Source: Schmidtea nova
Taxonomy: Eukaryota
Assembly: GCA_044892505.1 (NCBI GenBank)
Contig: CM097882.1
Span: forward strand, 240,622,001 to 240,686,000
DNA: 64,000 nt
Direction of reading: 5' to 3'
The notes beneath the pieces were generated by a model. That model saw nothing but the letters and a program-made list of their open reading frames with translations, was not told where the DNA came from and did not search any database. Every line of letters starts with the position of its first letter. Position 1 is the stretch's first letter. Positions 4,673 through 64,000 of this stretch are shown here, one piece after another. The translations under genes and the position numbers were made by a program.

Positions 4673-4709
4673 CAAAGTCATTTCTACAAATTTGTCACAA
4701 TTTATAAAA

Positions 4710-5126: not shown

Positions 5127-5191
5127 TTGTTATTTAATAAATTTTACTATGAACAAATTTAGTTTTTTATTTTATTTTGTATTTATTTAAA

Positions 5192-21440: not shown

Positions 21441-21533
21441 TTGGTCGCTTGATTGGTGTGAGAGGTGGTGGGGCGAGCCTGGAACCTGAAGCCGTTAGAC
21501 GGTCTTATCGAAATCTATAAAAAATCTTATATG
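21441..21533 (+). other. Upstream module plus spliced-leader copy A (SL 21491-21533)
   Basis: GCCGTTAGACGGTCTTATCGAAATCTATAAAAAATCTTATATG matches the planarian SL as recalled; not followed by GT; preceded by ttggtcgc..gtgagag..gtggggcgagcctggaacctgaa. Confidence 0.85.
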
Positions 21534-21888
21534 GCAACTTTAGTGGAAATAAGGTAAAAATATAATAGCCACCAAAATAAAACTCCAGAAGAAGTGATTG
21601 AAATCTTAGAGAATAAACAAAATGAAAACCAAACTAAATGTCTGCTACAAGAATAAAGCTGGTATTCAGAAAATGCTTGTGCCTGAAAATAATTCCTCCG
21701 CCGTGCTTGTTGATGAAAAGAAAAGCTTAAATCTAATTAAAAGTCTAAATGCAGAAATCACTGACTACAAAGTGAAAATTGATGATCTTGATGATGAAAT
21801 TTTGGTTTTGAAACAATTTGAAAATGTTCAAACTCAAGATCCAGAAGCAACCCAAAAAGAAGCTTTATTACAAAATTTTGAAAATTGA
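21531..21888 (+). pseudogene. Unidentified SL-initiated processed mRNA fragment
   Basis: Frame opens at the SL ATG (MATLVEIR*...) and is interrupted by stops and frameshifts; coiled-coil-like translation; not identified. Confidence 0.45.
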
Positions 21889-23932
21889 TTAGAAATTGAA
21901 AACTCTGTACGCAATGGCGCCGAAAAGCTTTTACAACTCCACAAAGGCAAACCGCATCGCGTCTGTGTGCGCGACACAAATGTTGGTGTTGTAGTCGGTA
22001 TGCGCAAACAGACGCGAGGATCTTCGAATCGCTGTTGAAAGAAATAACTTTGGAGTTAAAAATAAATCGAATTATTGGATTTATTAAAAACATTTTCTTT
22101 AGCAGTTGTTTTGCTTGGCTGAATTTTTAAATTGGTTTTTGTTGCGGAGTTTTTTAAAATTAAAATTTATATTTAAAAAAGGGCTTTGGGACAGTCACTT
22201 GTTTATCTGTGCTTATTTGGGATTATTGGTTTTGTGTTTTTTAAGGATAATAAAATTATAAAGTCATTTTTAAATTTTGTAAACTGCGTAATTCACCATA
22301 ATGAATGAAATGCTAATTCACACGAGCAACATTATCAACTGGAAAAGCATTAAAATTAATCCACATTTAACATCGACAGATTAAATATTGAAATGCAGTA
22401 TTCAAGTTTTGAAATATTTTCAAGTGGAATGCAACAATCACAAGGATTTGATTCTGGGCGATAGATCGGATTTGAGAGTAATCGTGAAACTATTTCTCAT
22501 TAACAACCATTACGAAGACATTCTGAAGCATTTATCACAAATATTTAAATATTTGGAATGCAATGAATTGGATTCGTTGATTATTTCTATCGCTCCTGAA
22601 ACTATACGCTCTTCAATTTGTATACATGATGTATATTAGATCATATCAACCAAGCATCATTGTGATTTAATTCAACAATTCAGACTTGAAATTTGATGAG
22701 TAACACAATAGTTTAACCCTAATAGCAGAAAATTTGTAGCAGAACATTGATAGCAGAACATCTTTTGTGATGGTTTTTATCTACAAAAGCTTTATATTGT
22801 ATTTAACTATACTACAAGTGCATGCCCTATGCGTAACACACATAACATGAATCGTTCACTCACAGGTCATTTTATCTACTTTGTTTTAAAATAAACCCAT
22901 CATTATAGCAATGTTTTATTGATTTATGTAATTTTTGTCATTATTTTGATCAATCACATAAATTTTACAGTCTTATTGTGTTAAAAATTGATTTTATTTA
23001 CATAAATTTAAAAATTAATTAATTTTACTTAGACAAGAATGTAAAATCATTAAATTTTACACTCGTATCTAACTTAAGTAATATGTATTTAATTAGTTTT
23101 ACAAAAGAATCTATATTAATCTCTTTAAACCTTTAAATAATCATTAAAATTAATATCAAACAAACATACATTTATTTTCGATAAATTAAATTTACAATAG
23201 CATAAATGCTACAGAATTCAATTTTTATCTTCGATATATTTTTAATCTTCTTTGGTTTTACTAATAGTCCTACTATTTTTAACCAATTCTATAAGTTTTC
23301 GCCACTGTCCATTTTCTGGAACCCAGGGGAATATTTCACTTTGGATAATCTAAAATAATAATAATAATAATAAAAATAATGATATATTTAAAAAATAATA
23401 TAACTGTACTGACCACTGAAAATAATTTTCATAATTTGAACCTGAATTATTCATTATTTGTTTTATATACATAACGCCACAATGACATGTGACCACTTCA
23501 TTTCAGACTCAAATAACGAGTAAAACACGCTTTTGAATGCATATTTCTTGCTTGTAGCCTATTTCTGATTCAAAATCCATGAATAGTCGATAGAATTGAA
23601 ATGATATATTTTCTCGGTATCAGACACCAAAATTTGTAAATTTGTTATGACTTTAACATCATTGTCATCTTTTTCTTTTGATAAGAGACTATCAATAAAA
23701 TTTAAAATAAATATTTCTTGATTCATTTCATTAATAAGAGTAAATTTTCAAGTGTTTAAACAAATTTATTCAAGATTTGTATGTGTATTACTCATGAATT
23801 ACAACTTGATTGCATCTCAATTGTAATTTGATTGCATCTCAAGAGCATGGACAACAAATATATTGTAATACAACTCTAAGTCATACAACTACATGTAAAA
23901 AATGTTATTTGAGTAGGCAGTTATGTGCCCTC

Positions 23933-26540: not shown

Positions 26541-26722
26541 GCTGTTTTATAATTCTAAATTATGATTGAATGTTCTTAGTATATATACGATAGAAACACA
26601 CATCATGTACGAAATGAACAACTTTAAACCAATAAGAATCAAGCAGGCAAAACATGTCTTTATTCTATCGATACACACTCGACCAATCAGAATCGTGCAT
26701 TTCCATTGCATCAATATTGCAG

Positions 26723-27189: not shown

Positions 27190-27279
27190 TAATAAAAATA
27201 TTTTTAAATGTAACAACAAAGAGATAATTAATATTTTAATCAATATAAACAATAATAATACTAATAAATAATTACAAAC

Positions 27280-28934: not shown

Positions 28935-28954
28935 ATATATTTACAGTAGTAATC

Positions 28955-29468: not shown

Positions 29469-29523
29469 ACAATGGGTCAATCATTACCTAATTTAAATTT
29501 AAACTTTAAATCTTTTTGTTGTA

Positions 29524-33170: not shown

Positions 33171-33235
33171 GCAGTATTGGTTTGAGCAGAGCTCAAACAG
33201 TATAAATAACCAAAGTTATTATTATTATTATTATT

Positions 33236-33612
33236 ATGGAGTAAGTTTTTAATTGAATAATTTATTATTTTTAATTAGTTCTATTCAGGTATTACAGCAA
33301 GGTAAAAAACTATTGGGAAACCAATTTATCGGAGTTTTTCCGTTAGATAAAATACCTTATTTGAAAATGAATCAAGCCATCATTGTAAATACTCACACTT
33401 CTACTTTGGGCGGTGAACATTGGATTGCGGTTTACGTGAAACCGGATCGAATACATGTATTTGATCCCTTTGGATGTTATTATCCCAATTTACTTGTTCG
33501 AAAATTGCAAACTATTGGTAAACCTATTGTGTATAATAGAATTCGGTATCAACATCCATTAACAACCACTTGCGGACAACATTGCCTTGCATGGCTAAAA
33601 TCAATGTTATAA
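33236..33612 (+). CDS. Adenain-like cysteine protease (ATGGA exon 33236-33240; 38-bp intron 33241-33278)
   Basis: GEHW, FDPFG and YQ....TTCGQHC catalytic motifs; splicing gives MDSIQV..FIGVFPLD; ATTGG-N20-TATAAATA upstream. Confidence 0.88.
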
Positions 33613-33645
33613 ACAATTTAGTTAAATAAATGTTATTGTAAAAAA

Positions 33646-34047
33646 ATGACTTGTTATTTTATTGATATTTATGGATATAATGAAATGGGTGGAACAACAA
33701 TTAAGGAATTATGTATTATGAATGTAAATAGTATTTTCACACCCTTGTATTATATATACAGTGATTTGTCTTTCTGGACTGATCGTTTAGAATCGTTTGA
33801 AGGACAAGATTATTTTTGCCCAAAATGTATAATGGATGATATTGAAGATAAAGGAGCTATTTTCTATGTTACAGATAATGAAAAGTTGCAAGTTTTGAAG
33901 AAATATTTCCCGAAATTGAGATTAATTAAATATAATTTTAAAGAATTTGAAGATGTTCCAGAAAATATCTCATGTCCATATAAAGACCATAGTATGTGTG
34001 CATATAAAGAATGCTTGTCTGGTGTAATAGATTATTTAAAACAATAA
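33646..34047 (+). CDS. Polinton accessory protein, possible Maelstrom/DEDD-like fold, 133 aa
   Basis: FIDIYGY....IKEL.I, FYVTDNEK and C-x3-H-x2-CA pattern. Confidence 0.45.
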   Translation: MTCYFIDIYGYNEMGGTTIKELCIMNVNSIFTPLYYIYSDLSFWTDRLESFEGQDYFCPKCIMDDIEDKGAIFYVTDNEKLQVLKKYFPKLRLIKYNFKEFEDVPENISCPYKDHSMCAYKECLSGVIDYLKQ

Positions 34048-34576
34048 ATATATTATTCGTGTTTTATTTTTATTATTATTAATATTTTCATAAACTTGCA
34101 GAATTCACATCCAATTTGCAGATAAACATCCATCTAGCAATACTTTTCGATTATCATAAAGAAATTGCATGCAGACACGCATGCAGACACTCAATTTTTT
34201 CACATATAAATTGACTTGGGTGTATTCACATCTGCATCTACACCCATAAGATATTTCATAAACTCATTAGTCACGTAGTGTCTTTGTATCATTGCATCCG
34301 ACATGCTTCGTGCAATATAACAAAGACATAACTCATACTTGGTGAGTTAATTATTAACACACATACTTGGTGAGTGATTTTTAACATACATACTTAGTGT
34401 GCACACATACTTTTTCTACCCTATCTCACTTGTGATTGGTTCGTGAATAAAGTTTGTAATAAAGTTTGTAATAAAGTTTGTAATAAACGTGATATATACT
34501 ATATGTTTTCATTATTTCATCACAATTAAAACAAATCATTTAAAAACATTATAAAATTATTATTTTACAAAGAAAA

Positions 34577-37500: not shown

Positions 37501-39633
37501 ATTGAAAATTTTTGTACCTCCACTCATTGCTATTTATGTAAAAAATTAATTGAGAAACCTGTTATGGATCATGATCATTATAACGGGAAGTATCTTGGAG
37601 CAGCTTGCTCAAAATGCAATCTTTCGCGACAAATTCGTCACAATCTGCCAGTTGTGTTCCATCATATCCTCAAATTTGGCTTGTCTAAATATGAGAAATG
37701 GAATATAAGCTGTGTCCCAGTAACTAGTGAGAAATTTCTAAGTCTTTACGCGAGAATTGGTTCACTGACTGTAAAATTCATTGATTCTTATCAGTTTGTC
37801 AATAAATCTCTCGATACAGCTGTGAAAACATTAACATCATTTCCTTTGACTTCATCTGAATTCACGGGTTCAATAATAACATCTAAGGGAGTTTTCCCAT
37901 ATGATGCTGCTACATCGTTGCAAGTTTTGAGGTCAACTTCTGAATTACCACCAATTTGGAGTGGTGTGACCGATTCTGAATATGAAATGGCTAAAAGAAT
38001 ATGGAGAGAGACCAATTGTAATTCGCTTTTCGATTACATGATGGTCTATTTGAAACTCGACGTATTTCTTTTGGCAGATTATTTCCAACAATTTCGTGCA
38101 AGGAGTATCGCACACAATAAACTCGAGCCACTAAATTTTCTGGGAATTCCAGGTATGAGTTGGAGTTCGGCTCTTATGACTTTGGAACATCCCATTACAC
38201 TGTTAACTGACATGGAGATGTATAACTTCTTTAAGGGTGGTATCAGAGGAGGGTTAACTTTCGTAAATAAACATTTTGTTCAATCAAGTTCACATACAGA
38301 GCTGTTGTATATAGATATCAACAACCTGTATGGCTGGGCTTTATCTCAAAACTTACCGGGCGGAGACTTTGTTTGGGTCACGGATGACCAATTATTAAAT
38401 AATATATTAATTGAATGCACTACGGTAGATCTAAGTCTGCTTAGCTATGGTTATACCATAGAAGTAGACTTAGAAATACCGGCATCTATTCACGACTACG
38501 TGGATGATCTTCCACTAGCCGCTGAAAAGATGTGTGCTCCTGGCTCAAAGGTTGAAAAATTGATGTTAACACATTATTCAAAAACAAATTATGTTCTCCA
38601 TTGGAGACTTTTACAAATATTTTTACAATTAGGTGTTATAGTCACAAAAACACACAGAGCAATTCGTTTCTCACAAAGTAAATTGTTCAAAGATTATGTG
38701 GACACCAACACAAATTTAAGAGCTTCATCCACCACAAAGATAGATAAAGACTTTTATAAATTATTAAACAACAGTCTTTACGGCAAGACTGTTGAAAATT
38801 TAAAGAAACGCATTAATTTGCGTTTGTGCAATTCTACAACAAAATTAATGACATATTGTAGTAGTCCATATTTCCGTAGTACTACCAAAATTGATCATAA
38901 TTTGATTTCAGTCTTGCTAAGGAAGCAATCAGTGTGTTTAGATAGACCTAGTTACATCAGTCAGACTGTACTAGATCTATCTAAACTGAGAATGTACCAG
39001 CTACAATATAATGAGCTGCAAAAATATCGCGAACAATTTGACTGCGTAATAAATATTGTAGCTGGAGACACTGATTCCTTCTTTTTGGAAATCAAAAACT
39101 GCAAACTAAATATTCTTTTGTCCGCGATGATTAGGGATGAATTATTAGATACATCCAATTATGACCCTAATCATCCATTGTATTCGAGGAGCCTTGATTC
39201 TGTCATTGGAAAATTCAAAGACGAGAATAAAGGACTCAAATACAATGAGTGGGTATTTTTACGACCAAAATGTTATAGCTTGCTGGGTGATGAGGAATGT
39301 ATAAAAGCAAAGGTAATAACATTGAAAGATGCGGGGCTTCATCATGCGAAATACTTTGACTGTTATAAGAATAATAAAATATATACAGTTCCACAGTTTA
39401 GGATCATCAGCAAAAAATCATCAACTATACAGCATAAATAATCACAAAACAGCACTGACATGTAACGATGACAAACGCAACTGGGTTGCAAAAAATAAAT
39501 CTTTGGCATATGGACACTATCGGGGGGGTGACACTTTTATAGATGATCCTCCGATTGATCCAGACCAAGAGTCCAGGAGAATAACCGAATACCTGGAACG
39601 GCGAGCAAGACAATTGCAAAATGAGCCGTCAAC
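34577..39633 (+). pseudogene. polB: Protein-primed family B DNA polymerase with a spliced 5' region; frameshifts near 36450 and 39412, nonsense at 36880
   Basis: IYADFEA, DHDH.NG.YLGAAC..CNL, KFIDSYQF, KGVFPY, YIDINNLYGWA, KLLNNSLYGK, AGDTDS, GKFKDE, RPKCYS, DDKR..AYGHY. 5' exons 34577-34622, 34678-34740, 34794-34865 and 34919-35044 are joined by phase-1 GT-AG introns. Confidence 0.92.
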
Positions 39634-40304
39634 NNNNNNNNNNNNNNNNNNNNNNNNNNNNNNNNNNNNNNNNNNNNNNNNNNNNNNNNNNNNNNNNNNN
39701 NNNNNNNNNNNNNNNNNNNNNNNNNNNNNNNNNNNNNNNNNNNNNNNNNNNNNNNNNNNNNNNNNNNNNNNNNNNNNNNNNNNNNNNNNNNNNNNNNNNN
39801 NNNNNNNNNNNNNNNNNNNNNNNNNNNNNNNNNNNNNNNNNNNNNNNNNNNNNNNNNNNNNNNNNNNNNNNNNNNNNNNNNNNNNNNNNNNNNNNNNNNN
39901 NNNNNNNNNNNNNNNNNNNNNNNNNNNNCATCAATCAAACAATCATTCAATCAATCAAAAAGTTTTTAATCAATAAAACAGAAATCTTACAACCTACACA
40001 ATTCGTAAAATAATTTAGAAGCTCAATCCACATTTCAATCAATCAATCCACATATTAATCAATGCAAATTGTGAATAAATTTTGTGTTAACATTTTTATT
40101 TGTAAAATATTTGAATATAAGTTATAACTTATTCTCAGTTTTAATTATTTTGTCTTAGTTTTTATTATTAATAACATCATTATTATTATAAATTATTCAA
40201 CCATTTTGGTAGGTAAATTAACAAATGTATTTTTATTTTAGTTTTTATTTAGTTTAAGTTATTTATTTAAGTTAGGTTTTTATATAATATTGTTTTAAAG
40301 AAAA

Positions 40305-42185
40305 GGATATAAGTTTAATAACAATTTTTATAACTAAATAAAGTTTATTAAAAAGATGTTATGCTGAGTATTAAGGTGTTATTTAGTTTTTAAATAAGTA
40401 ATTATAAATTTACTTTAAACATTCTTTTTATTAGTTAAAGTGTTATTTATTTTTTAATAGGTTATTATAGATTGACTCTAAAAGGTTTTAATTAGTTAAA
40501 TAGTTGTTTTTAATAAGATATTTTTATTAAAGGTATAATTTGAAAATGAATTTATTAAACAAATAAATATTAAAAACACACATGCATCAATTACATACAT
40601 GCAGCAAAACATGTTACAAAGACACGTGACAAAGACATGCATAACGTGTGCAATACAAATGCATGATTCTGATTGGACAAAGACATACACTCGTGACTAT
40701 AAATACAAAGACATTTTTTAAGATGTTGTCACAATTTATAAAATGCCAGCACGTAAATCAACTTATGACATTAGTGAAGAAAGAAAAATCAATAATGAAG
40801 TCAAACTAGTACAAATGTATTACGATTACAAAATTTATTTCTTGGTACAAGAAATACCGTTTCGTTTGTCATATCCAGTGAAATTAACAAAGTCAGTGTA
40901 TGACAGTTTAGCTGCAAATCTAAGTAAAGAAGATGTTGTTGCACTAAATAAAATTTTATTCAAAATCAATAACAATTTAAGTTGCAAGGAAACTATATGG
41001 ATCAACAACCGAAAAACCCGTTTCCATGATTCTTTCCAATCGATCGAATACAAGGATCAAGAAAATTGGTTTATTACCATAATCATTCAGAGATATAAAA
41101 TCTATACAAAAGATGTTATAACTCCAATTTGGAGAATTGACAGTGCACGATATGCATAAATGTTATTTTACAAATGTTATTTAATAAATGTTATTAATTT
41201 AAATTTTAGTTTTTGATTGTTGGAATTTTCATAAATTTTGTTATTTGTCTTAAACAACAAGGTCAGAAGAACGCACGTTCCACGCGCGCTCATTGCATAC
41301 TGTTATTTGTCTTAAACAACAAGGGAAGAAGAACGCGCGTGAAACGCGCGTTCAATGCGTACTTTTATTTGTCTCAAACACACACACACGCAAGATATCC
41401 GTGTACAAAAATATTATTAAAAGTTATATTTCATTAGTCTTTGTCTCGTTGCATTTACTTTGCAATGTCTGTGTTAAGTTGCATCTGCATTGCAATGTCC
41501 TTGTTTAAATTTAGGTAGGAAATTTTATAAAATAGTGATTGATAAATTTTACATACACACACACCATACATATTATACATATTATAAGGTTTTCAAATTT
41601 TTGAACCTTGGAACTTTCAAGGGTATGACCTTCGAACTCACCTTCAAAAGTCCTTTTGAATGATATGTATATTATAAGGTTTGAAAATTTTTGAAGGTTT
41701 AAGACCCTTGAAGGTTGAGCATACACAATAGACCTTCGAGGGTATGACTATCATACTTACCTCTCAATTACCTTTCGAATGATATCTATATTATAAGGTT
41801 TGAAAAGATTTGAAGGTTTTGGACCCTTTGAAGGTTCATGACCCTCCATAAACCTTCGAGGGTATGACCATTGTATAGACCTCTCAAGGACCTTTCGAAT
41901 GATACCCTTGTTTGAAGGTTTGACCTTATTTAACCTTTGGAAATTCAAATTTAAAATTTGAAATGAGTCATCGATGACGTCATAAAATTCGAATTTGAAA
42001 TGAGTCATCGATGAGTCATAGTGATGAGTCATCGATGAGTCATGCTAATGAGTCATACTGATGAGTCTTCGATGAGTCATCCGGGCGGGGGTGGGGTAGG
42101 GGTGACTCATGTTCTTTGTTATGAGTCATCGATGACGTCATTGTCTTTGTTTAACGATGAGTCAGAGGGCACATAACTGCCTACT
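40305..42185. repeat. Right TIR (1,881 bp)
   Basis: Reverse complement of 23912-25850. Confidence 0.95.
40743..41159 (+). CDS. TIR-encoded 138-aa accessory protein (mirror)
   Basis: Six amino-acid differences from 24996-25412. Confidence 0.75.
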   Translation: MPARKSTYDISEERKINNEVKLVQMYYDYKIYFLVQEIPFRLSYPVKLTKSVYDSLAANLSKEDVVALNKILFKINNNLSCKETIWINNRKTRFHDSFQSIEYKDQENWFITIIIQRYKIYTKDVITPIWRIDSARYA

Positions 42186-43285: not shown

Positions 43286-43860
43286 CTAATAACTTTTGTA
43301 GGGCTTACCAAATTCATCATAATACGCCGGTGTGCATTGTAAACTTTGAACTGCCATATTCATTTTATTCGTGAACAACACTGGTTTGATTTGTTCAACA
43401 ATAGCCTGTCGCAATAAGATCTCTGTTTGAATGCAGATTCCGGAAACACAATTCACAAAAACAATTGTTCCATCATTAACTCGCAATAACGCTTTCATTT
43501 CACTGCTGAAATCAATGTGGCCAGGAGAATCGATTAAATTTATTATAAATCCTTTTTTGTCAGTTTTCCCATCGTCACCTAACGTTACAGGTTGACCATA
43601 TTTTACAGTAGCTAAATTGCAATCAGGCATTTCATTGTACATAGAAAAAGCTGTAGATTTTATGATTATGCATCTTCCCTGTTCATCTTTTCTTGAATCT
43701 GTAAATCTAGCCTCATCGGCTTTGGTACCTGCTATGATACCATCTTTACTCACTAACGAATCTGTTGAGTTAGACTTTTCTTGGTCAACATAATTTATGG
43801 AATTCATATTTACATTCATAAAAATTAATTTACGAAACAGGATATCTTTATCTGCAATGT
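43286..43860 (-). pseudogene. EEF2: Processed eukaryotic elongation factor 2 fragment (N-terminal GTPase part)
   Basis: [48 protein letters not shown] and [18 protein letters not shown]; no introns over about 190 codons. Confidence 0.9.
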
Positions 43861-43869
43861 TTATATTCA

Positions 43870-44360
43870 AATGACAAAAATTAAAAATTCCAAAATATTC
43901 CAGAAGCGTTTATTTCAAATTAAATTCAAATTAGATTCAAAGCACCATCAAAATCTAAATTGTTCTCAAACACTAAATTCCCTTTTTTTTAAATTTCCAG
44001 CAAAAATTCCAATTCAATTGGATTAATAAAACAAATCCAATAATCAAACGTTTTAAAAATCCAAAAATAATTGATTCCGAAATTCCATCAAAAAATAACA
44101 ACAATTGAAAGAATTCGACCCAAACGCGCACACAGACGCGAGAAAATAAAGAATAAATAAAGCATGCGCACACAGACGCGAAAGAATCATAACGCGCACA
44201 TAGACGCGAATTAAACTAAACATATAACTATGCGCACACAGACGCTGATAATAACGCACACACAGACGCAATTAAGCTAAAATACGCACACAGACGCGAT
44301 TAAAACTACAAATGCCACTGCACACACACACACATAGGCTCAAAGTTTGAGCCAGGATTA
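43870..44360 (-). repeat. T/G-rich tract with six GCGTCTGTGTGCGC-like motifs
   Basis: gcgcacacagacgc at 44126, 44166 and 44232, with variants at 44194, about 44256 and 44284; starts with TAATCCTGGCTC, also at 55538. Confidence 0.8.
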
Positions 44361-46350
44361 TCCATTATTATTATTTTAATAAATATATAATTANNNNNNN
44401 NNNNNNNNNNNNNNNNNNNNNNNNNNNNNNNNNNNNNNNNNNNNNNNNNNNNNNNNNNNNNNNNNNNNNNNNNNNNNNNNNNNNNNNNNNNNNNNNNNNN
44501 NNNNNNNNNNNNNNNNNNNNNGTAGATTTGACTAGGAAAAGCCGGAGAAGAAACTAAAAAAATTACTATTTTATTAAATATTTATAAGTGAGGGTGGGGG
44601 GTTGTTATCCTTTGAATGAATCATGCCAGTCGTTGTGGTGGACGACCTTAAGCCAACCTAATGGGAGGCCTCTGCGATGATTAGGTTTTTAGTTTTTTAA
44701 AAGTTTTTTACCAAAATAATAATTAAATTTGGTCAAAGTGGCTATGACTATGTCTTGCCAGGACATGAAACAATACTTTGTGGATGATGTCTTGGTAGCT
44801 ATCTACCCTTGATTATCTGAACATGATCGCTATAGATAGCGAACTATTGATGCCCAGGTCCTATTGGCCCCACTTTGGGGGGATGGCAGCCATGACCCTT
44901 GTGGGTGCGATTACTTGCCCAGCATGTCTTTTAGGCACAGGCATTTAATCACTGCTCTTTAGGACTGGCAATATTAAGCACAAGTTCTTCAATCCTGTCT
45001 TCTCTTTTCTTGATAAATTAATAATAATAAAAATAATGAGACTATAATAATAATAATTTTAAAAATAACACTAATTAAAATAGTAATAAAAAATAGTATC
45101 AATAATAATGTTAATTAATATCAATAACAATTATTAAAAATTTTAAAAAATTAATAATAAATATTGAAAATAATAATTAGAAAAATAACACTTAAAAAAT
45201 AGTAATAATAAAAAATTTTTTTCACACGATGCCATATTTTGATCTTTGACACCAATTTAAGCTTGAAAAAACAAATGGTCGATTCAAAATGGTTGACAAT
45301 ATTTTGATTTTTTACATTAAAATTCAAATTGGCGTAAAATTTTGACCTTACATTGTAAGGCTTACAATACAAAATGGCGTAAAAAATGAAAAATCGGGAG
45401 GGAGGGTAGGGGCATTGGTTATGTAGATAGCCAACATCCTATTACCTACTTGTGTTTAAATAATTGATTATTTGGCACTTTTTATAAAATTTTAATTAAA
45501 TAAATTTTTGTCGGAATTGAAGACTTTTAAAACAGAGTTTAAATTAACTAAATCAAATTACATTTATAAATTAAAACAAAAATTTAAAATCTTATCAAAA
45601 TTAAGATAAGAAATGCAATAAATATTTCATTAAATTGACATAAATTCTCAACGTCAGTAAAATCAATTAATAAAATCCATAAAATTCATCAGATCGATTT
45701 GACTGATTTTTCATTATTCTTTGTGATGTGCACATTGATCCAATTCCTATTTGAACGTTTTATGTAATATTCCAATTTTATGATGTTTGCTATTCTCCGA
45801 TCTTCCAATACATACATTGTTGTCTCGATAGATGAGATTTGAAAAAAATAAGGCAAACAAAAATCCTATAATTACCTCTTTTAGAATGGATGTAGAATAA
45901 AGAAGTAGCTAAACAATCCTATATAAACCTGTAGAAAAGAGATTTATAATGAGTATTTCAGGTCACGTAGCTTGCCTATTCATTAGCGGTCTACATTTCT
46001 AACACATCGGGCGAAGAGTGTTTGTATTGCGATTGTGAGCGTGATTAGTTTTTATGCGGGTGTCAAATTAAACTCGGATGAACTGAAAATCAAGAAGATC
46101 TCATCCATTTATTTGACTACTAAGCCTAGTAAAATATATTTGCAAAGCAAAAACATTTTGTAAATGATAATAACATTTCCCCATCTTGTTTTTCTACGTC
46201 TTGATAAAGAACCTCAGTAATTGACACCATACGCGGTTGAACGATTGATAATGAATTTTCCGCTATCGTTTGGCAATTGTAGGAAAAGGATTAAATGGAT
46301 TATCATTTTCTTTATCACTTTCAAACAAATATTAAAAAAAAATTGATTAC

Positions 46351-51352: not shown

Positions 51353-51435
51353 TTGATATCAATGTTATTATAGCTCTAAAGCAATTCAGAAAAAAAATAC
51401 GTTACTATTAAATTTTTTCCAAGATGCATTAACTT

Positions 51436-51582
51436 TTGGTCGCGCCCGCTCTTAAAATATTTTTAAAATTACTTAAATAATAATTAAAATAATTAATTGG
51501 GTGTTTGATCGCTGTGAGAGATTGTGGGGCGAGCCTGGAAGCCGTTAGACGGTCTTATCGAAATCTATATAAATCTTAGATG
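51436..51582 (+). other. Upstream module plus spliced-leader copy B (SL 51541-51582)
   Basis: GCCGTTAGACGGTCTTATCGAAATCTATATAAATCTTAGATG; the 105-nt upstream segment is shared with 53647-53760. Confidence 0.88.
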
Positions 51583-52375
51583 TCGGAAGATTCCAAATCA
51601 AATGACAGTGGTAAAACTCCACTTCAGACAGTGTTTATAAACGGTAACAAAATCAGCACATTAATTCCAAATCGAATATTTGTCGGGGGATTTCCACAGA
51701 ATACTACAGAAGAAGAATTGGAAAGTTTTTTCTATAAGTATGGAGAAATAAAGGATGTTAAAATTATCCCTGATAAGCTGGACAAGCTAAAGGAAGTTAT
51801 GGTTTTGTAACATTTGCCAGCCAAGAAGTTGCAGAAAGAATTATTACCGAACAGGCTGAAACATTAGTACCAGATCGAAAGTTGAACATTGGTAGAGCTG
51901 TAAAAAAGCAACCGTTGACTGGTAAATCTGAACTACAAAACACTTTGATATTAAATAAATTGCCACTTTCGTATGGATCAGTTTATCTATATCAAGATTA
52001 TTCTTATCTTTTCAATCAAGATTTGAATGCATTATATCAAAACTATTCAAATCAATTATCTCAAATAAAGTTTCTACCCGCTTATGCATCTTCATTATTG
52101 TCTCCATTTGTTGGAAATCATGTAACCCTGGGTCTTTCCATAAATCCTTATCAACAATTACAATCCTTATTACCATTGTCAATGACAGCACCTCAAAGTA
52201 ATTCACCATTTCACTCGAATCAACCACTTAATTAAATGAGCAATTATCAAAAAGTCAGCCTGCTTCTGTGGAAGCAAATATTTCAACTGATACCAGCAGA
52301 GACATTGAAACTACAACCATTTCCAGCAATTTTCAGAGCTATGATAATAATTATTCTCAAACAAAACTTCATTGT
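51580..52375 (+). pseudogene. boule: Processed boule (DAZ family RRM) retrocopy, frameshifted in RNP1
   Basis: IPNRIFVGGF..TTE.EL..FF..YGEIKDVKII.D; shifted frame KGSYGFVTF..A..RKLNIGRAVKKQ; ATG supplied by the SL; intronless. Confidence 0.85.
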
Positions 52376-52960
52376 AAATTGATTAAAAAGGAATCTTGGA
52401 ATTTAATCGATTGGAATTTTTTGAGGTTTATTTAAAAACATTAACTTGATTGATTTTGTGATTTGGTTTATTTTTTGGATTTAAGTTTTGTTTATTGGGA
52501 TTAATGGTAATTTTTTTTGACTTAAAAACGATTGGTTTAACTGGGTAACTTTAATGCAATTAACTTAGGGTGATTTTGAACTTTTGGAATTTAATTTTGA
52601 GGAATTATTAAAAAACTTAGTTTTAGATTTGTTTGTGTTATCGGATGAATTGATGAATTTTTGGCAGAATTAATTTTTAATTTGTAATTAACTATTGGTG
52701 GAATTTTGGATTTTGTTTATCTGCGTCAATGAATTGGATTGTAATGTTTTTTATTGAATTAACTTTTGAATTTAATTAAGGATTTAACTTTGAATTATTT
52801 TTGCTGAATTATTTTTGGATTTACGAATTTTGGGGGTCAATGAATTGAATTTGGGAATTAACTTTTGAATTTATTATGTTTAATTGCTGATGCTGAATTG
52901 GACTTTTGAATTGGATTTTGAATAAAATGTTTCGATTTCGATTTTTTTGATGAATTTAAA
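52376..52960 (+). repeat. Strand-biased T/G-rich low-complexity tract
   Basis: Very low C content (ttggattt, ttgaatt units); similar tracts at 22060-22300, 54170-54400 and 55540-55830. Confidence 0.7.
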
Positions 52961-53646
52961 TTTGGATTAATTTCGACTTGGCATTTAAAGCGATGGCGTT
53001 GAATGGATTACTTTCTGTGGATGTTCGAGATAATAATTGTGGCGTAGTTGCTTCACAAAGAGAAGTTCCAGGTAAAATGAACAAACAGAGTTCTGCTACA
53101 AGATTATTTAACATAACTGAAAGTACCGATTGCGTTAGGACCGGAATGATTCCTGATTGCAGATCGCAAGTATGCCGTGCACAAATGAAAGCTGCACGAT
53201 GTGAATGCAAATTTCATCATAAACTGTCCTGTGAAAGGATTTGTTGATGTATTGCCGATATTAATCAATCGTACACTCAATCAGCCTCAATGATCGCATT
53301 ATTATATGATGACTCATCATTGATGACGAAAGCAATAGGAGCTGGATGCGCCAAACCAACTTTAATATTAACAATATTTTGGCACAGCCTTTATCAAGTG
53401 TGTATTGATGAAGGCTGTCCCTAAATATTGTATACTTATTTAAAATAAATTTTGATCCATAGTCATCCATTATGGGAATTATTGATATTAATACTTTTAA
53501 TTCAAATAAAATTTTATTTTATATAATCAACTATTTTATTTTACTGATTATTTAATTAATTATCGGGGATATATGAACAATAATTTACATTACAGTGGTT
53601 ATAATTTGTGTAAATAAGGGAGAGCTAACACTTCATTTTATTATAT

Positions 53647-53802
53647 TTGGTCGCACCCGCTTTGTAAAAATATTTTTAAAATTAATTAAATAAAAGTTAA
53701 ATGGTAAAAAGCGGGGCTGGATTGCTGTGAGAGATTGTGGGGCGAGCCTGGAAATCTGAAGCCGGTAAACGGTCTTATCGAAATCTATATAAATCATATA
53801 TG
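53647..53802 (+). other. Upstream module plus spliced-leader copy C (SL 53761-53802)
   Basis: GCCGGTAAACGGTCTTATCGAAATCTATATAAATCATATATG (3 substitutions from the recalled SL1); module ttggtcgcacccgct..gctgtgagagattgtggggcgagcctggaaatctgaa. Confidence 0.85.
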
Positions 53803-54069
53803 ATATGGCCTGTGTACCACAACATGGGCGGTGCAATTGCCATTCATTCTGCTGTTGAATCTGTGATTACTTCACTAGTCGGATTAGTTGTAATTAATGT
53901 TGTTGAACGATCGGCACTCGGCGCATTATACAGTATGAATAATTATCTTCACAGCAGACCATGTGTTTTCAAATCACTATTTCATCAGTATTCCAACTCT
54001 CGGACTATATACTTAATCGATTCACCGATTCCTTTAAGTGCTCATCAATCGTCTCCTGATTTGTATTAA
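53800..54069 (+). pseudogene. PPME1: Protein phosphatase methylesterase 1 internal fragment, in frame with the SL ATG
   Basis: HNMGGAIAIH..SLVGLVVINVVE.SAL.AL.SM..YL.SRP..FKSL matches PME-1 HSMGGAIAVH..L.GL.VIDVVEGTA..AL.SMQ.FL..RP..FKSL. Confidence 0.8.
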
Positions 54070-54433
54070 AATTTCAACAGTGCGCCACAACCCTACAGTA
54101 ACCAGTGAAGATATCAAAACTTATTCTATTTGTGTGTAACATAAATATCCTATTAGTGACAATTCAATTGCTGATTTTTAGGAACTGAATTTGTGATTAA
54201 TTTAGAATTTTAAATTTTAAAAAATTATTGGAATGAAATTGTAAATTTGGTAAATTAGATAATTTTGTAAATGGTTTAAATTTGGCTTAGTAATTTTTAA
54301 TTTTTGATTAGGATTTGGAATTTTAAAAGGTGATTAATAATATTTGTGTAATTATTGGATTACTTGTATTTGATGGAAATATATATTTATTCAAAGCGTT
54401 GCAAAGACTTCTTGAAAACTTGATAATATAAAA

Positions 54434-54937
54434 TCGGATGCTAATATTTTATTGGATCAAATGCGACTGAATGCTCAACGTCATTTGCTAACCTTGCAAG
54501 AACCAATTCCAGTTGATCAATTGGTAACGCAGATTTGTGATTTATTGCACGCCTACACAATGTATGGTGGCCGACGGCCTTATGGAGTCTCTATGCTCTT
54601 TATTGGATGGGATAAAGAATACGGCTATCAGTTGTTCCAGTTAGATCCATCTGGTAATTTTGTCGGGTGGAAGGCCACTTGTATTGGTTTGAATTCGGCT
54701 GCGGCTTCCTCCATGCTAGAACAGGAATACGAGAAACTTGACGTGGAAAGCGGCTTAAAGCTCTGTGTTAAAATTCTTTATAAATCGATGACAATATCAG
54801 AACTAACTGCAGAAAAGATTGAATTGGCAGTAATGAAACGCAAGGATGATAAAACTTATGTCAAACTAATTGATCAAACTAAAATTGAGGCTTTGATCAA
54901 AGAAGTGGAACAAATTGATTTAAAGGAAAAGCAGAAA
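54434..54937 (+). pseudogene. PSMA4: Proteasome subunit alpha type-4 (alpha3) 3' two-thirds, intronless
   Basis: SDANIL..MRL.AQR.L..LQEPIP..QLV..ICD..AYT.YGGRRPYGVS.L..GWD..YGYQL.Q.DPSGN..GWKATCIG.NS.AA.SML. Confidence 0.9.
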
Positions 54938-55000
54938 GGAAACGGTTATTTGCCACTGAGAGGTGACGTTCCAGAGATGACAGCTGACCCTGAACGCTAT
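54938..55000 (+). pseudogene. NAE1: Short NEDD8-activating enzyme regulatory subunit fragment fused in frame to PSMA4
   Basis: GNGYLPLRGDVPEMTADPERY resembles NAE1 G.LPVRGTIPDMIADS.KY; short match. Confidence 0.6.
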
Positions 55001-56784
55001 GAAAGGATTGAGAAAATCAATCGCACCTGGCCGAAGTCAACCAATAAAAATTGATGTGGTTTCTTTTCGTAACATTTGTTATTTGCACTTCTGATTAATG
55101 GTGTTAAGATGGACTCACCTTTAGCTTCTACATTCATTTCTGTTTCTATGTAAAATTTAAAAAGTGAATAAACCTTTATTACACAAACGTTATTTAGATG
55201 ATATATTTCTTATATTTAACAATAAAAAACACTCTGGGTTTTTTTTGTGTTATATAAATAATTTCCAGAGTCATAACATTTACTATTAAAGTTGAAAAAA
55301 AAGAAAAACAAACAATTTAGAACCGACTAGGTAAACTTTAAATACTGGCCTGTATACAAATTTTATGATTTTAATCATAAGAAATATTATAAGCGATTGG
55401 TTTATTACCGCTAATTTACCGCCAATTTACTGTAGATCTATAAATAATTTTGATTATTTTATTTAAGTTAGTGCAGAATAACGGATATTCAAAATCTTCT
55501 CGAATGATGTGTGAAGCTATTGATATGTGTATCTGGTTAATCCTGGCTCGGATTATGAGATTCGCGTGGTTGATTGTGCGTTAATGTTTTTGATTAGTCG
55601 AATTAGTTTTTTCAATTTTTATTATCAATCCAATTGGAGCTTTTCTTTTTGTGTGTGTAATTTGATTATGATGGTGTGTGTCCTATAATGGTTTTTGTGT
55701 GAGTAATAAGATTATTATGGTGTGTCTATTAATGGTTTTTGTTAGAATTGGTTTATTTTAAAAATTTGGATTGAAATAATAAAGCTTTTTTCAATTCTGA
55801 ATTCGACTAATTTTAAATTGACTGCAAATAAATCTGACGTAACGTATGAAAATGAGATTAACAATGTATATTTAACCGATTTTTTGGTAAGAAATCAATG
55901 AAAATCTTAATGGTTGGTTTAATGAATCGACATTGCAAATAATTTTAGGGGTAATTGTCGATTCATTTATTTTAATTTTTGTCTCGTAAAAATTAATAAA
56001 TAAATTGAATAATACTTTGCGGTATTCCAGTGGTCGAAGTTGCAGTTGCGACTGTATAAAATGACTGGTTTGATCATACAAATGATCATACATTTCTGAT
56101 TGTTGGATATAATTATCCTGATATCCAATTTGAGATGAATGTTCATTCCTTGCATTGTTGGGTAGAATATCCTATAACAATCGCATGGTTTGATTTAGTG
56201 TTTAATTATATGAGTTTACCAGCCATATTATTAAAATGTAAAAACTAATTGATTTGCTAATAAATAGATTACAAATAAAAGACAAATTTTATTTTAAACT
56301 TCAAACTTTTTTTTCTTTTTAAAACAACTTGTCATACTTTTTATAAATCATACTTTTAATAAAAAATACTTTTTAATAATAAAAATAAGTAATAGTTCAT
56401 AACAAAATGTTGAATTTTTTGACGGAGACACGAAGATTGAAATAATAAATAGATTTTTCACATTGAGATTACCTAATTTTCTTCAAGAATTTATTAATAT
56501 GAAAATATCATTCTTGGTCTATGTTTTACAATCTCTTGTTATTTATCGCTCTTTGATTGAATGGAACTGAAAGGGGAGGCTAATTGGATGGATTAGACAA
56601 TTCATAATCAATAAAGTTCGATTTCGAAATTATTAGAAAACTTCAGCGATTTGTTGCCATGGTTATTATTGACAAATTTAAATGGGTGCTGAGTATCAGT
56701 AGACGTTGTAAAAAAATCAATATTTTTGAAAAGTATTTTCAATACAAGAATATAAGTAACAGCTGTGAGAGAAGGAATGATTAG

Positions 56785-57175
56785 GAATGGAGATGATGTG
56801 ACAACAGAACATTACAGTTGGTCTCGATGAAGCTGTTGAAAAAACAATTATTTACAAATTGGAACTTGGTGAAATTGGTACGATTCATAGAATTATTTTT
56901 AATGTAGAAACAGTTGAAAATATGAACCTTTGTTTCACAGTGTGGGACGTAAAAGGAGAAGAAAGAATTCGACCATTATGGTGTCTCTATTTTCAGAATT
57001 TATAGAGTTATATTTCGAGTTATATAATCTAATTTGCAGATAATTTGCATAAAATGCTGGAAGAGGTATATCTCAGAGATATTGTGACTTTTGTATTTAT
57101 TAATAAAAAAGATCTGTAATGTAATGTCGGCTGTAGAAATTACAGATAAATTACTACTTCATAATTCGGAAGTTG
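56785..57175 (+). pseudogene. ARF1: Decayed processed ARF GTPase copy
   Basis: VGLD.A...[64 protein letters not shown]. Confidence 0.85.
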
Positions 57176-57275
57176 TTCCCGAAGAATATACATTGTTGTT
57201 CAATGAAGCTCTATTCAAATCGAATACCAACAGAGAAAAGCTGACTCGAATCAGGTTTATAACTTTCAATGCTCC

Positions 57276-57277
<2 letters not shown>

Positions 57278-57343
<66 letters not shown>
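57278..57343. repeat. (TA)n microsatellite; others at about 10877-10907, 12192-12230, 18165-18182 and 61052-61105, (TAT)n at 19087-19170
   Basis: Directly visible. Confidence 0.95.
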
Positions 57344-57346
<3 letters not shown>

Positions 57347-59139
57347 TCTGTTCAAGCTGTGCTATTTCTTAATGCTTCTGGAAGAACAATAGTTCATATT
57401 TATGTTGGTTGTGGGTGCGTGATAGATTTTTGTATTTTTAAATTTTGTTCATTTTACTTATCTAGGGTCGCATTGCAACACATAAGAAGTCTACTATCCG
57501 TATGCCCGTAAGTATCACTTTGTACTCACGTTGGTATTGCATACGACAGGTGAATGTGAATCGGCAGGTGAGATTTTATACAAAAGCTATTGCCGATCCT
57601 AGCATTCTAACGGGTTCCCTATTGACCGATAGGTCTTTGCTAATTCATTTCCCCTTACCCTTTGTGCTGTTCTCTCCTTTATGGTATAATTTTCTTGTTT
57701 AATTGTTCACAACTTAATTGCCACACCCCTTTCCCGTTACTTTGTCACGTAAATTAATAAAACAGAATCATTTAATTAAAATAAAACAAGACAGTAACAC
57801 TCAACACATTATATTCAACGATTAGGGCACAAATCTAATTAAGTTATCGGTAAACTCTTTTGAATTTTCAGCAGACACTGTCTTTTGAATAAACTAATCC
57901 GTTTTCGTTTCTTTGGGTGACTTCTTAAGTTTGTTTGACCCGCAATCATCTACTGCGACTGGATTAATCTTAGGAAACCATTAAGACAGGGTTATAAGTC
58001 TGATTTGGTTTTTTAAGTCGTCTTCCACGAAATGTACTGTCAAAATCCTCTTGCAATTTCGTAACTCAATACATACGGCTTTCAACTCTAAATTTAGGTC
58101 ATCATTACTCTGACGTAACCGTGCTATTCTAACTTTTTCTACTTTCATCTCGGTTGGCGAAAATTTTGAGCTTTCTTAATCAATAATACGTCGTTTTAGC
58201 CGAACGATACTATAATCGGAGTGCATGGATTAGATATTCTCTCGGATCATGGTTATACTAATCTCTCACAAGCTTAGCTGCGTATCATAAATTATCAAGA
58301 ACACTGAACAATAAACAAAAACAATCTGTCGGTTGATTATATCGTCAAAGTACGACCTTAGTTTTTACAACTACCATGACCTACTTGTCCCCTTCACTTC
58401 TCTTATTTACTCTTGATTCAAAACAAAATATCAATTTAGTATTCGTCTCTTGTAATTGACGTGATTCATCGCAATCATCACATTGTGGAAAATCTTCTTT
58501 TGCGAATTCTTACTCGAATGTTTTTAGTTCCATCCGCAAAATCCATATACAGATTGTACTGTAGAAAATTCAACACTAAGACTTTAATACTTCTGAATTT
58601 TTCATGTTGGAAACATGTTTATTACACATGCTAACATTATTTAAAAACAAAAGAACAAAAGCAAAAATTATGCGTGAGTTTGTGCGTTGATGGATGATGA
58701 GTGACTCACTAAGATATTACGATTCATAACGTTTTGTATCGTTTTTATGTTTTCTAAGTGAATAAGCAGACTTACGTTTGGTGAGACCAATAATAATAAG
58801 CATTTTTTAAATTAATATTAATTTACATTTTGTCAATATATGGCTTCTAGCCTTCTAAATGTAGTAATCCCCTGTTTATTTTAGTGCGAAATGTGCAATA
58901 CTAACACCGTATAGGCTATACCATATAGTTAACTAAATTGTCTTAGTTATTTGTTTAAAAAATAAAAATCATATTTACCCCATAATGAGTGATATAAGGA
59001 ATTTTTTTATCAAAAAGTGAAAGGAGAATGAAGAAATTCATGAGAGCTCTCAGATACTTCATTCGGATCCTTCCACTTCTATGTCATTGTCAACGTTATC
59101 GTCTGATTTATCAATAAAAAAGACATTTTAGAAGAAACT

Positions 59140-61108: not shown

Positions 61109-62259
61109 GCTTCTCATGAATAAATTTATGAATAAAATTATTTAAAAAAATTAATTTTTGAATTAATTATGTTTTTGCAACTTTCTAAGAAAATCAAGCA
61201 AATATTACAAAGATCTAAATAAATATGATCATTATTTATCAATATATTTGCTCACTATAATTTAGATGAATTATTTCTATTCTTGAGGCTAGATTTTCGT
61301 TCAAATTAAAATTTTTACACCATTTTTACATGATTTTATTACACAATTTTACCATATTCAATTTGCTATAAGCACAGTATCTTTTCGTAACGCCCGTGAA
61401 ACTATTGTTTGTAAGCTGGACATTTATAAATCGATCCAGATGTATTTATCTAGCTGGCAAGTGTATTTGTCTGCATATCACAAATGTGTTTGTGTGTATG
61501 ACTTGAATTCTTAATACAATGTTATGCTTTTACTTAGTAAAAAAATTTACTAGGATATATTTTAAAAATATAATAATTGATTCACTTGTAATTGACTGCA
61601 TGTTACAAATTTGTATGCATGAATATGTTTTAGGCTACACATTTCTCTGCTTATGGAAGATTCGAATTCAAAATGTTGTATATATTACAGCAGACAAATG
61701 AACGAACTTTCATTGAATATGAAAGTTATTCTGCAGAATGATGTAAACAAGGGAGTGTTGAATGATTTTAATTAATTAAGACATTTGAACAAGATCAATG
61801 TGTATTTTTATTGTTTTTCTAGTAAATGATTAAAGATATGTCAAATTAATTAATTTTGAATAAAAACCTTTAATTTGAAAATTAAAAATAAACCTAAAAC
61901 TTTTAAGTTTATAGAAATGTACTGTCTATATATATATATGTGTGTGTATTCTTAGCCCTTGGTATTAAAAATTAAAATGCGCCTTCAAAATGCTTTCAGA
62001 TTTTTTATTTAAAAAATTGAAAAAATGCTCAATTTTAAAAACAAAAATTGTATTTTTCAATTAATAAATTATTCATTTTGAAAGAAGAAAATATTTTCAA
62101 TAATGTAATTTAGAGAAATAAAGAGAATAAAAAAATATAATAAAAAAAAGAATAAATGTTAAAAGAATAAGCTGAATGCAGTTCTTTCATAATATAAATT
62201 AAGATATTAAATAATATTGTTTCAGGCTGTTGTGCGCTACATTTATACCAGCCTATGTT

Positions 62260-62348
62260 GCGTCTGTGTGCGCGTAGTTGAAATTCTTTTTGGTCTCGCG
62301 TCTGTGTGCGCATTTCTTAATTTTGGGTTCATATGCGTCTGTGTGCGC
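62260..62348 (+). repeat. Three GCGTCTGTGTGCGC motifs spaced 37-38 bp
   Basis: At 62260, 62298 and 62335. Confidence 0.85.
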
Positions 62349-62699
62349 ATTTCTGGATTTTATTCTATGTACATCAACAATCCAATGCTTCTTTTGATGA
62401 TTTCAGTTTAAAGGGAAGGGAGGGAAGGTGTGTCCCGTGGGGTTGGAAGGTTAAAAAACGTAATACAAATTTTCATAAAAACTTTAGTAGAAAAAACGAT
62501 TACGATGGAAGTTAAATCCTTAGAAAGAGGGGATCTCATCGAGTCACCAGCGTTGAATATTTGATGGGAAAAAATTATAAGATGGTTGTAAATTGTCTCT
62601 ATATAATATAAAAATGGGTTCAACCCTACATTTAAGTTTAGGGTTGAATGGGGGAAGTCCTTTAATCGATGCTGAGTTTGAGGTAGGATATAAAAAGCA

Positions 62700-63770
62700 A
62701 ACTGGTTTAAAAATAGCGTTAGGGCGTCTTCGTAATAAGGAGCTAGCTGAGTCAGTGGATTCCACTAAAGAACAAAATTGAAGAGAAGCGTATGGTGATA
62801 TATATGAAGAAGTGGTGACAAAATTAGAAAAGCTAAAGAAGCAAACTCGGGAATTAGAGAGAGTAAGCCAACTAAAAGATATTGAGAGAGATCTCGAACG
62901 ATTGGAAGCGGAATTTAACGGAATAGGAGAGCTTGCATTCAGTAAAAAAGAAGAGAGTATTAAAATGGAATCATTTAAGATTGGGGAACAATCTTTTAAG
63001 ATTGAGAAGATTAATAAAAGACCAAAACTGTTGGTAGGGTTGAAACCCTTACAGCTTCCGGTATTCAATGGAAAGATCATGGAGTATTCTGGATGGCGAG
63101 CAATTGTGAGAGCCTGCATCAAGGACACATATGAAAAGCAAGCGAAAGGAAATACCTGTACTTAAGACAGTATTTGGAAGGGAAACCTCTGCAATTAATT
63201 GCTTTTATCGGATATGGCTCTCAGGCTTTTGAAGCGGCAATAAAACTATTGGATGAGAGATATGGTGGACCAGAACGATCATATTCAATGATGCTGGACG
63301 CGGTACAGAGGTTCTTTCCAGTGAGGCTCAATGTATTGGAAGAAATAAAACGGTTTGAAGAGCTACTGGGAAATATCATCCTGACATTCTAGGACCAAAA
63401 AAAGAGAAGGAGAGTTAAACGATGGAATCCTGTATCACCAATTGTTGAAAAAGTTACCGGAAACCATGTTAATACAGTGGGCATGAAATTGTGAGTCAGG
63501 GAATGAGGCAAACGTAAAAACGTTATCGAAATGGGTCAAAAAAGAAGCTGACAGGCATCGCAAAGCTTTGAACATCCTGTTTGGAGGAAGTAGAAAAGAA
63601 GTTGAAAATAGGAAGAAGTTCACAAATTTTGTGGATAAATATCCGAAGGTAGAAGCTGGTGGAGAACAAATAACGATACCTAGATGTAAGAATCAAAATG
63701 AGAACATGTCAATGGTGACTTGTTGCAAGATTAACTCCTCTCAGATGGACATGTCTGGGAAAGATCAATA
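62700..63770 (+). mobile_element. Decayed BEL/Pao gag
   Basis: LKPLQLPVFNGKIMEYSGW..LEGKPLQLI..FEAAIKLLDERYG (DUF1759-like). Confidence 0.8.
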
Positions 63771-64000
63771 GGGATCAAGCTCCGTGACACTCCCATTTTG
63801 TCCGCAGTTACTTTTCTAAAGTATAATGGTTGGACAACCAGTTATGGCAATTTTGGGAAATTGAAGAAACACATACGGAAAAAATTAAGTTTTGTCAAAA
63901 TGAAGATAACACAATAAAGGAAAATATTGCTGGTGAAATGGTTGACAACTCTGGGTCTGTTGGTATTTCAAACAAAAATGAAATAAATACTACTTCAAAC

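Follow-up and report, generated by a model that had tools for sequence, protein, structure and literature searches.

The stretch analysed here (the window) is 64,000 nucleotides of the planarian Schmidtea nova (C1:240622001-240686000; GenBank CM097882.1) within a genome of 1.25 Gb. Its positions 51,436 to 57,175 hold pieces of host mRNAs for an RRM protein, two proteasome subunits, an alpha/beta-hydrolase, NAE1 and ARF, lying among T/G-rich tracts and copies of the spliced-leader (SL) exon. The units which carry these pieces are solo long terminal repeats (LTRs) of a BEL/Pao element. The 5.7 kb thus holds three insertions side by side, two of them complete solo LTRs and the third a decayed unit that is probably a sibling LTR of the same clade, parted by 289 bp and about 490 bp of DNA belonging to no unit. 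A single LTR reads, in order, a constant end of ~105 bp (the module), the 42-nt SL exon, one or more host pieces (slot 1), a T/G tract, and again one or more host pieces (slot 2), with two to three pieces per unit. The coordinates are given in Table 1, together with the target-site duplications (TSDs) and the relation to the primer-binding site (PBS) and polypurine tract (PPT) of complete copies.

Table 1. LTR units of the window and their parts
Feature	Coordinates	Strand	Remarks
Solo LTR 1, SL-bearing BEL/Pao family, TG...CA	51437..53358	+	exact TSD ACTTT at 51432-51436 and 53359-53363
Constant 5' LTR end (module)	51437..51540	+	adjoins PPT in 3' LTRs; not an SL RNA gene promoter
Full 42-nt spliced-leader exon, ATG at its end	51541..51582	+	1 change relative to the SL RNA genes found
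Slot 1: spliced RRM (boule/DAZ-like) mRNA piece	51583..52372	+	begins at parent AG acceptor
T/G-rich, C-poor tract, inner LTR segment	52392..52972	+	putative U3 promoter region; position seen in sibling family
Slot 2: proteasome alpha-6 (PSMA6) piece	52973..53300	+	
Constant 3' LTR end	53326..53358	+	in Gag frame, coding, in paired copies
Solo LTR 2	53648..55043	+	TSD 3/5 matching; exact TSDs, PPT or PBS in sister copies
Diverged spliced-leader exon variant	53761..53802	+	common to the PME-1-carrying subfamily
Slot 1: alpha/beta-hydrolase internal piece	53803..54150	+	81% identity to P0131
T/G tract of solo LTR 2	54175..54432	+	
Slot 2: PSMA4 piece	54433..54942	+	5'-deleted here; second intron lost; ends just before parent stop codon
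Slot 2: short NAE1/APPBP1 piece	54943..55000	+	in-frame fusion to PSMA4 and to LTR end
Decayed unit, probably LTR of SL-less sibling family: TG start, tract, ARF piece, actin-like piece	55534..57400	+	
Solo LTR of SL family, older, shorter	21442..22652	+	exact TSD AGCAT; SL at 21491-21533
SL-less sibling family LTR	43286..44364	-	tract with repeated 14-bp motif, then EF-2-like GTPase piece
Decayed copy, third sibling lineage	62240..64000	+	tract motif, ubiquitin remnant, DUF1759-like Gag

An earlier reading of this interval, made without database searches (the sequence-only reading), had described most of these parts. The module with SL which it reported is present at 51437-51582 and 53648-53802. 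Its boule fragment is an RRM piece (Pfam) which has lost the parental introns, but DAZL is not the top entry among the PDB matches and the name boule is not settled. The Cys-rich fragment which it left unidentified at 52978-53247 proved to be PSMA6. Its PME-1 fragment does encode an alpha/beta-hydrolase, which we take to be PME-1. Both halves of the PSMA4-NAE1 fusion were confirmed, joined in frame, NAE1 being supported in a longer sister copy of the second unit. ARF is likewise supported in a sister copy of the decayed unit; here the piece starts at ~55860, runs over ~55860-55940 and 56815-57130 with an interruption of ~870 bp, and continues past 57175 into an actin-like piece (a weak match, Pfam E 0.0034). 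The 3' end and TSD of this unit were sought and neither was found, so that it is assigned by likeness only. The strand bias of the three T/G tracts also holds, with a GC skew of 0.47-0.84 against a 95th percentile of 0.37 and a 99th of 0.52 for the window. As homologous repeats the tracts were rejected, their mutual alignments scoring at or near shuffled sequence, and the 14-bp tract motif occurs in only 15 of 62 SL-family LTRs. Recurrence of the same architecture had been proposed at 21441-22750 and 43286-44360; the former does contain an LTR of the SL family, and the latter is a minus-strand LTR of a sibling family which lacks the SL. An Rfam scan of the 64-kb window gave no matches, and folding of the module (z -1.2 and -1.8) lent no support to a structured RNA or a ribozyme there.

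All counts below were drawn from top-scoring matches and are biased lower bounds. At first look, a genome search with module plus SL brought up 2081 candidates; 40 of them were scored and 30 were read, none of these figures being a copy number. All 30 loci read have the same TG start, unrelated flanks and different coding sequences after the SL, while copies with the same cargo share a common ...CCA end and have five flanking bases that match each other. The 62 LTRs in which both ends are present comprise 43 solo LTRs, 10 with a PBS behind them (5' LTRs) and nine with a PPT in front (3' LTRs). An exact 5-bp TSD flanks 35 of the 43 solo LTRs. Of the 22 that lie outside microsatellites, 16 have an exact TSD and 19 have at most one mismatch. 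A target preference is suggested by the AT-rich microsatellites in which about half of the solo LTRs (21/43) are housed.

Paired LTRs, with TG...CA ends, are 99.56-99.95% identical in seven of seven cases, cargo included, and transposition has therefore been recent; five of the seven pairs have an exact TSD. One copy (L043) displays the whole layout of TSD, LTR, PBS, internal region with Gag, PPT, LTR and TSD; four contig runs of unspecified kind cover all of its bins, start and strand not being resolvable from them. The PBS is presumably of the tRNA-iMet type, as in other BEL/Pao elements. Another copy (L087) encodes, in two frames, DUF1759, a CCHC zinc knuckle, protease, reverse transcriptase (RT), Peptidase_A17, an integrase zinc domain and DUF5641. 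The DUF1759 Gag, Peptidase_A17, DUF5641 and the order protease-RT-integrase place it in BEL/Pao, and the paired direct repeats, PBS, PPT and 5-bp TSD are those of an LTR retrotransposon. The units are thus LTRs of the BEL/Pao clade, 1.1-2.7 kb long and consisting mostly of host mRNA. Pol was found in this one copy among nine paired-copy loci read, the others having Gag and a coiled-coil region. In most paired copies (internal regions of L081-L095) a long coiled-coil region stands in the Gag open reading frame (ORF) instead of pol.

All identified pieces lie in sense orientation, on the plus strand in 51436-57175; they carry no poly(A), end before or inside the last exon of the parent and are intronless in the three genes for which a parent was found. 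The parent of the boule-like piece lies at C1:89.48-89.50 Mb. In the LTR copy the SL is joined to the base directly after the AG acceptor, five introns are lost, and the piece ends before the stop codon. Among 29 PSMA4 loci, the parental introns of 53 and 51 nt are missing from 23/23 and 16/16 of the copies that span them. PSMA4 cargo starts ~15-30 nt before the ATG, where different tract ends are joined to it, and ends just short of the stop. A long sister copy of the PME-1-type piece has lost two parental introns. Intron loss, partial mRNA and absence of poly(A) are the marks of LTR-mediated retrocopies. Microsimilarity at switch points, another such mark, was looked for at a single 3' junction, where the former state of the LTR could not be recovered. 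LINE-made retrocopies were rejected, given that the boule-like and PSMA4 pieces stop before the stop codon and have neither a tail nor a TSD of their own. Capture is at the RNA level, by one kind of element.

The three true SL RNA genes which were found possess a donor GT, an Sm-like site and three hairpins (fold z -4.0). They are clustered at C2:409.01 Mb in two orientations. The SL copies of the window LTRs do not show this combination of SL exon, GT donor, Sm-like site and hairpins, and the module was rejected as an SL RNA gene promoter, the sequence upstream of the true genes being unlike it. In the LTRs the SL exon occupies a fixed place, whole at 42 nt, and is followed by host mRNA. At 51563-51573 it includes a TATA-like word (TATATAAA), which could serve as a promoter element once in DNA.

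Each LTR is thus a pair of exchangeable slots of spliced host mRNA. Slot 1 fell into 22 sequence clusters from ~20 donors, including LEM, LSM14, ankyrin, HSA and TRIP12-like pieces. Its frames are not kept: reading from the SL ATG is mostly short, and in the boule-like copies a frameshift against the parental sequence ends it after 76 codons. The slots assort independently, PSMA6 being found with five slot-1 leads in addition to PME-1, and the boule-like piece with two slot-2 types. Several LTRs depart from the simple order. At L083+L084 (C1:294.196-294.205 Mb) an 828-bp unit of module, SL and slot-1 cargo is present in 12 tandem copies in a single LTR; L085 (849-2587) and L095 (797-2537) have two SLs ~320 bp apart, the second SL-led piece being nested in slot 1; and a sibling LTR, L209 (100-1500), is ordered tract-cargo-tract-cargo, its first cargo resembling, as we take it, eIF3L.

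Slot 2 has kept its frame. In 30/30 close copies with a PBS (the best of 1182 candidates, close kin and not independent) the frame is open over the LTR end and PBS into Gag, with 63-440 codons upstream, and in 23 of them no break occurs in the 559 codons that were read downstream. In 56 of 62 LTRs the longest open frame is that of Gag. Five slot-2 donors identified independently of frame (PSMA4, PSMA6, NAE1, FHA and CID) are all in the Gag frame, as are the HSP90, HSP70 and ubiquitin pieces. The 3'-most piece is in frame in 50 of the 54 LTRs with a match, 23 of the 54 resting on markers chosen in the Gag frame; with independent markers the figure is 32/35. No stop is shared upstream of Gag among the 30 copies, against ~7.6 expected. 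Shared nonsynonymous and synonymous (N/S) changes in these copies number 24/4 in slot 2, 28/5 in the HSP90 piece and 9/12 in ubiquitin; amino-acid changes are therefore unsuppressed in the first two. Private changes in PSMA4, at 213 N, 61 S and 21 stops, follow the neutral pattern, with 9 of 12 indels frame-shifting, and both of its shared indels are in frame. Translation of slot 2 is accordingly a likely reading of these patterns. Different slot-2 segments of L082 and L135, both close to the LTR end, contain hydrophobic-then-acidic motifs which presumably resemble SUMO-interaction motifs.

Between the PBS and Gag, the SL family carries an HSP90 piece and then a ubiquitin, which ends in LRGG in 28 of 30 copies; in frame before the Gag product, this is a ubiquitin fusion. 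The SL-less sibling family has nearly the same PPT, a tract which begins right after the terminal TG, EF-2-like and other pieces behind it, and ubiquitin before Gag (one copy read). A third lineage has cargo with an ATG, the same PBS frame, an HSP70 piece and a ubiquitin ending in NGG. The ubiquitins of the three lineages are identical at 49-53 of 76 positions and their Gags are 38-44% identical; Leu73 and Gly75-Gly76 are kept in all three. Ubiquitin before Gag may reflect one old gain or several, these being indistinguishable here. The copy at 62240-64000 was considered as a sibling free of cargo and ubiquitin and rejected, its relatives carrying ubiquitin and, in two of three read, cargo. 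In other species a search for ubiquitin-Gag fusions gave matches dominated by polyubiquitins.

The best overall explanation, to which we give a probability of roughly 0.8, is that these are BEL/Pao LTRs into whose U3 and U5 host mRNA would be captured by template switching, a ubiquitin freeing Gag from what lies upstream. Capture itself was very probably the work of the RT, which would switch template onto co-packaged host mRNAs. U3 would consist of module, SL, slot 1 and tract, R would be short and situated at the border of tract and slot 2, and U5 would be the translated slot 2. This layout is somewhat favoured on the grounds that SL-less siblings have the tract at the opening of the LTR, that slot-2 cargo starts near host 5' ends with different tract ends joining there, and that the slots reassort as U3 and U5 would. 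Strong-stop transfer would yield new U3/U5 pairs, and the 5' end of the captured mRNA would provide the start codon of a frame running through LTR end, PBS, chaperone piece and ubiquitin into Gag. Cleavage after Gly-Gly by host enzymes is general ubiquitin biology, and the ubiquitin inserted in pestiviruses has a cleavage role. By analogy, host deubiquitinases may well cut after Gly-Gly here and release Gag from whatever cargo precedes it, in which case slot 2 would be selected mainly for an open frame. The resident SL could, by its 42 nt of homology, help the RT to switch back from trans-spliced mRNAs, a role to which we give slightly less than even odds and which suits the boule-like piece. 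More tentatively, capture may be built into the replication cycle, U5 acting as an in-frame trap that borrows host 5' untranslated regions and start codons, free to do so because ubiquitin uncouples Gag from upstream sequence, and the SL-bearing U3 as a second trap, this one for trans-spliced mRNAs.

Several observations weigh against this reading. Many slot-1 pieces (PME-1, LSM14, ankyrin, DCB) are internal rather than SL-led 5' ends and do not fit the SL as a homology handle, and the exact join of SL and acceptor was examined in one gene only, the boule-like one. R and U5 were placed by indirect argument only. Seven of the 30 PBS copies break within the codons read downstream, and six of 11 marker peptides were picked in the Gag frame and thus have no proof value. 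For the N-terminus of Gag the shared N/S count is 63/31 and for PSMA4, in at least three copies, it is 37/19, both only mildly below neutral. PSMA4 also has five stops shared at the two-copy level and one at the six-copy level, the last of which is probably an artefact of the alignment at a junction. In the ubiquitin of one lineage Arg74 is replaced by Asn. In the SL family, Met follows Gly-Gly directly and could be a start for Gag; the other two lineages have no such Met.

The alternative that survives best, while still unlikely, concerns the SL, which would derive from trans-splicing of the element's own RNA, or be kept as a TATA box or transcript start, with slot 1 and tract then forming R. 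The presence of the whole SL exon, including the TATATAAA word, is in keeping with this, as are the many slot-1 pieces that the SL does not lead, and the available part of PMC12582326 suggests the same origin for 597 partial-SL loci in parasitic flatworms. The boule-like piece, on the other hand, is exactly the product of host trans-splicing, siblings without SL share tract and slot 2, and a long leader full of ATGs would sit before the Gag frame. We regard as less probable again a passive version, in which LTR capture is the same but ubiquitin, SL and cargo merely hitchhike, translation of Gag begins at Gag's own Met, as trans-splicing might allow, and frames are open because the copies are young or evade nonsense-mediated decay. 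The Met right after Gly-Gly in the SL family, the very young age of the copies and the weak or absent amino-acid constraint on cargo speak for it. It has difficulty with five independent donors in one frame (chance ~1 in 240), with the absence, upstream of Gag, of stops common to several copies although frame is lost in slot 1 of the same LTRs, and with the persistence of Gly-Gly in three old lineages, of which two lack a following Met.

Very improbable is the form proposed by the sequence-only reading, one long element stringing mRNA pieces together with T/G spacers as an RNA analogue of Pack-MULE or Helitron capture. The pieces are indeed sense, intronless and without poly(A), and acquisition of RNA by a single kind of element, not LINEs, stands; some LTRs do have serial pieces, two SLs or the order tract-cargo-tract-cargo. 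Yet there is no long serial array: every unit is bounded by TG...CA ends and a TSD of its own, the DNA between units is unrelated, and copies of each unit are found singly elsewhere, which refutes a single element for the whole 5.7 kb. Where that reading had seen no individual TSDs, and had named a TSD, poly(A) or introns per fragment as signs against it, there is one TSD pair per unit, exact or, for 53648-55043, at 3/5; poly(A) and retained introns were not found. Of the checks which it recommended, definition of the element boundaries led to LTR ends with TSDs, and comparison with the parent genes showed introns lost relative to all three parents found. Pack-MULE and Helitron capture is at the DNA level and keeps introns, and such elements have long terminal inverted repeats or TC...CTRR ends; lost introns and LTR ends are seen instead. 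Least probable is a non-autonomous DNA transposon (Ginger-like, TGGT...ACCA) or an SL-gene-targeted non-LTR element carrying retrocopies, which would account for the short terminal inverted match, 5-bp TSD and fixed place of the SL but is refuted by the paired-LTR copies, with their PBS, PPT, paired direct repeats and BEL/Pao gag-pol, and by the unlikeness of module and sequence upstream of the true SL RNA genes.

The feature is therefore real and its form was misread: the element is a member of BEL/Pao, captures mRNA in a manner like LTR-mediated retroposition, and differs in that its cargo is housed in two slots of the LTR and fused in frame to ubiquitin-Gag. In Ty1 the GAG frame also begins in the 5' LTR and passes the PBS, but its U5 is its own sequence and not swappable host mRNA. 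As described in the part of PMC3118150 available, BEL/Pao elements have a DUF1759 Gag, CCHC, the order protease-RT-Peptidase_A17-integrase, TG...CA LTRs, a 5-bp TSD, PPT and solo LTRs, and the planarian element agrees in Gag, pol order, LTR ends, TSD, PPT and solo LTRs. It differs from that account in that host mRNA fills most of the LTR, the ORF begins within the LTR, a chaperone piece and ubiquitin precede Gag, and many copies lack pol. Template switching in the particle is an established route to LTR retrocopies according to the accessible sections of PMC5131818, which cite maize Bs1; the likeness extends to partial, intronless multi-gene chimeras, lack of poly(A) and non-autonomous re-amplification. 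In the cases covered there, which are few, the retrocopy replaces internal ORFs between the LTRs, whereas here slots 1 and 2 are inside the LTR, with only the chaperone and ubiquitin pieces internal; the slots are fixed, spread by solo LTRs, and one is in the Gag frame.

Cytopathic pestiviruses, as far as the excerpt of PMC2850149 goes, also acquired host ubiquitin by RNA recombination directly before a downstream polyprotein protein, but they are RNA viruses in which such events are sporadic dead ends; here ubiquitin is stable before Gag in three retrotransposon lineages. The giant planarian elements Burro/GYPSM1 (PMC6431247, in part) are similar in being LTR elements with host-like, including ubiquitin-related, domains in the polyprotein. 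They differ in being Gypsy elements of >30 kb with an N-terminal Gag and fixed internal domains, and that part of the paper reports neither an LTR mRNA cassette nor an SL. The nearest published remark is that on the 597 partial-SL loci near LTR/LINE elements of parasitic flatworms (PMC12582326, in part); the SL lies beside LTR/LINE elements there too, but those leaders are partial, mentioned in passing and discarded, unlike the full SL at a fixed LTR site with host mRNA next to it. The comparative planarian genome paper, in the portion available, defers the naming of expanded transposon families to future work. No description of LTR cargo of this architecture was found in the literature searched, itself available in part, and Repbase, Dfam or curated repeat libraries may contain the family.

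If the proposed explanation is correct, the LTR, which is usually non-coding, would be a continuous exon-shuffling cassette in an animal, tolerance of cargo would be explained by the release of Gag through ubiquitin, and the SL would have a new use. On the more tentative reading, in which capture is part of the replication cycle, solo LTRs would have scattered chimeric retrogenes of housekeeping and stem-cell genes, each bearing a promoter, in numbers of the order of a thousand. The size and young age of the family make it possible to measure the packaged mRNAs, the RT switch sites and any piRNAs that arise against the element and hit the parent genes. With >100 PSMA4-like and PME-1-like matches genome-wide, false paralogues and SL-bearing loci will mislead the annotation of genes and trans-splicing.

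Elsewhere in the window, positions 23912-42185 are occupied by a large element, which we take to be Maverick/Polinton-like, with 2-kb terminal inverted repeats (94%), matches to an A32-like ATPase and an adenovirus-type protease, and a long polymerase-like ORF. A rearranged partial copy of it, with a 1.4-kb inverted duplication, lies at 1-5145, and a Penelope-like relic with a GIY-YIG match at 6919-7629.

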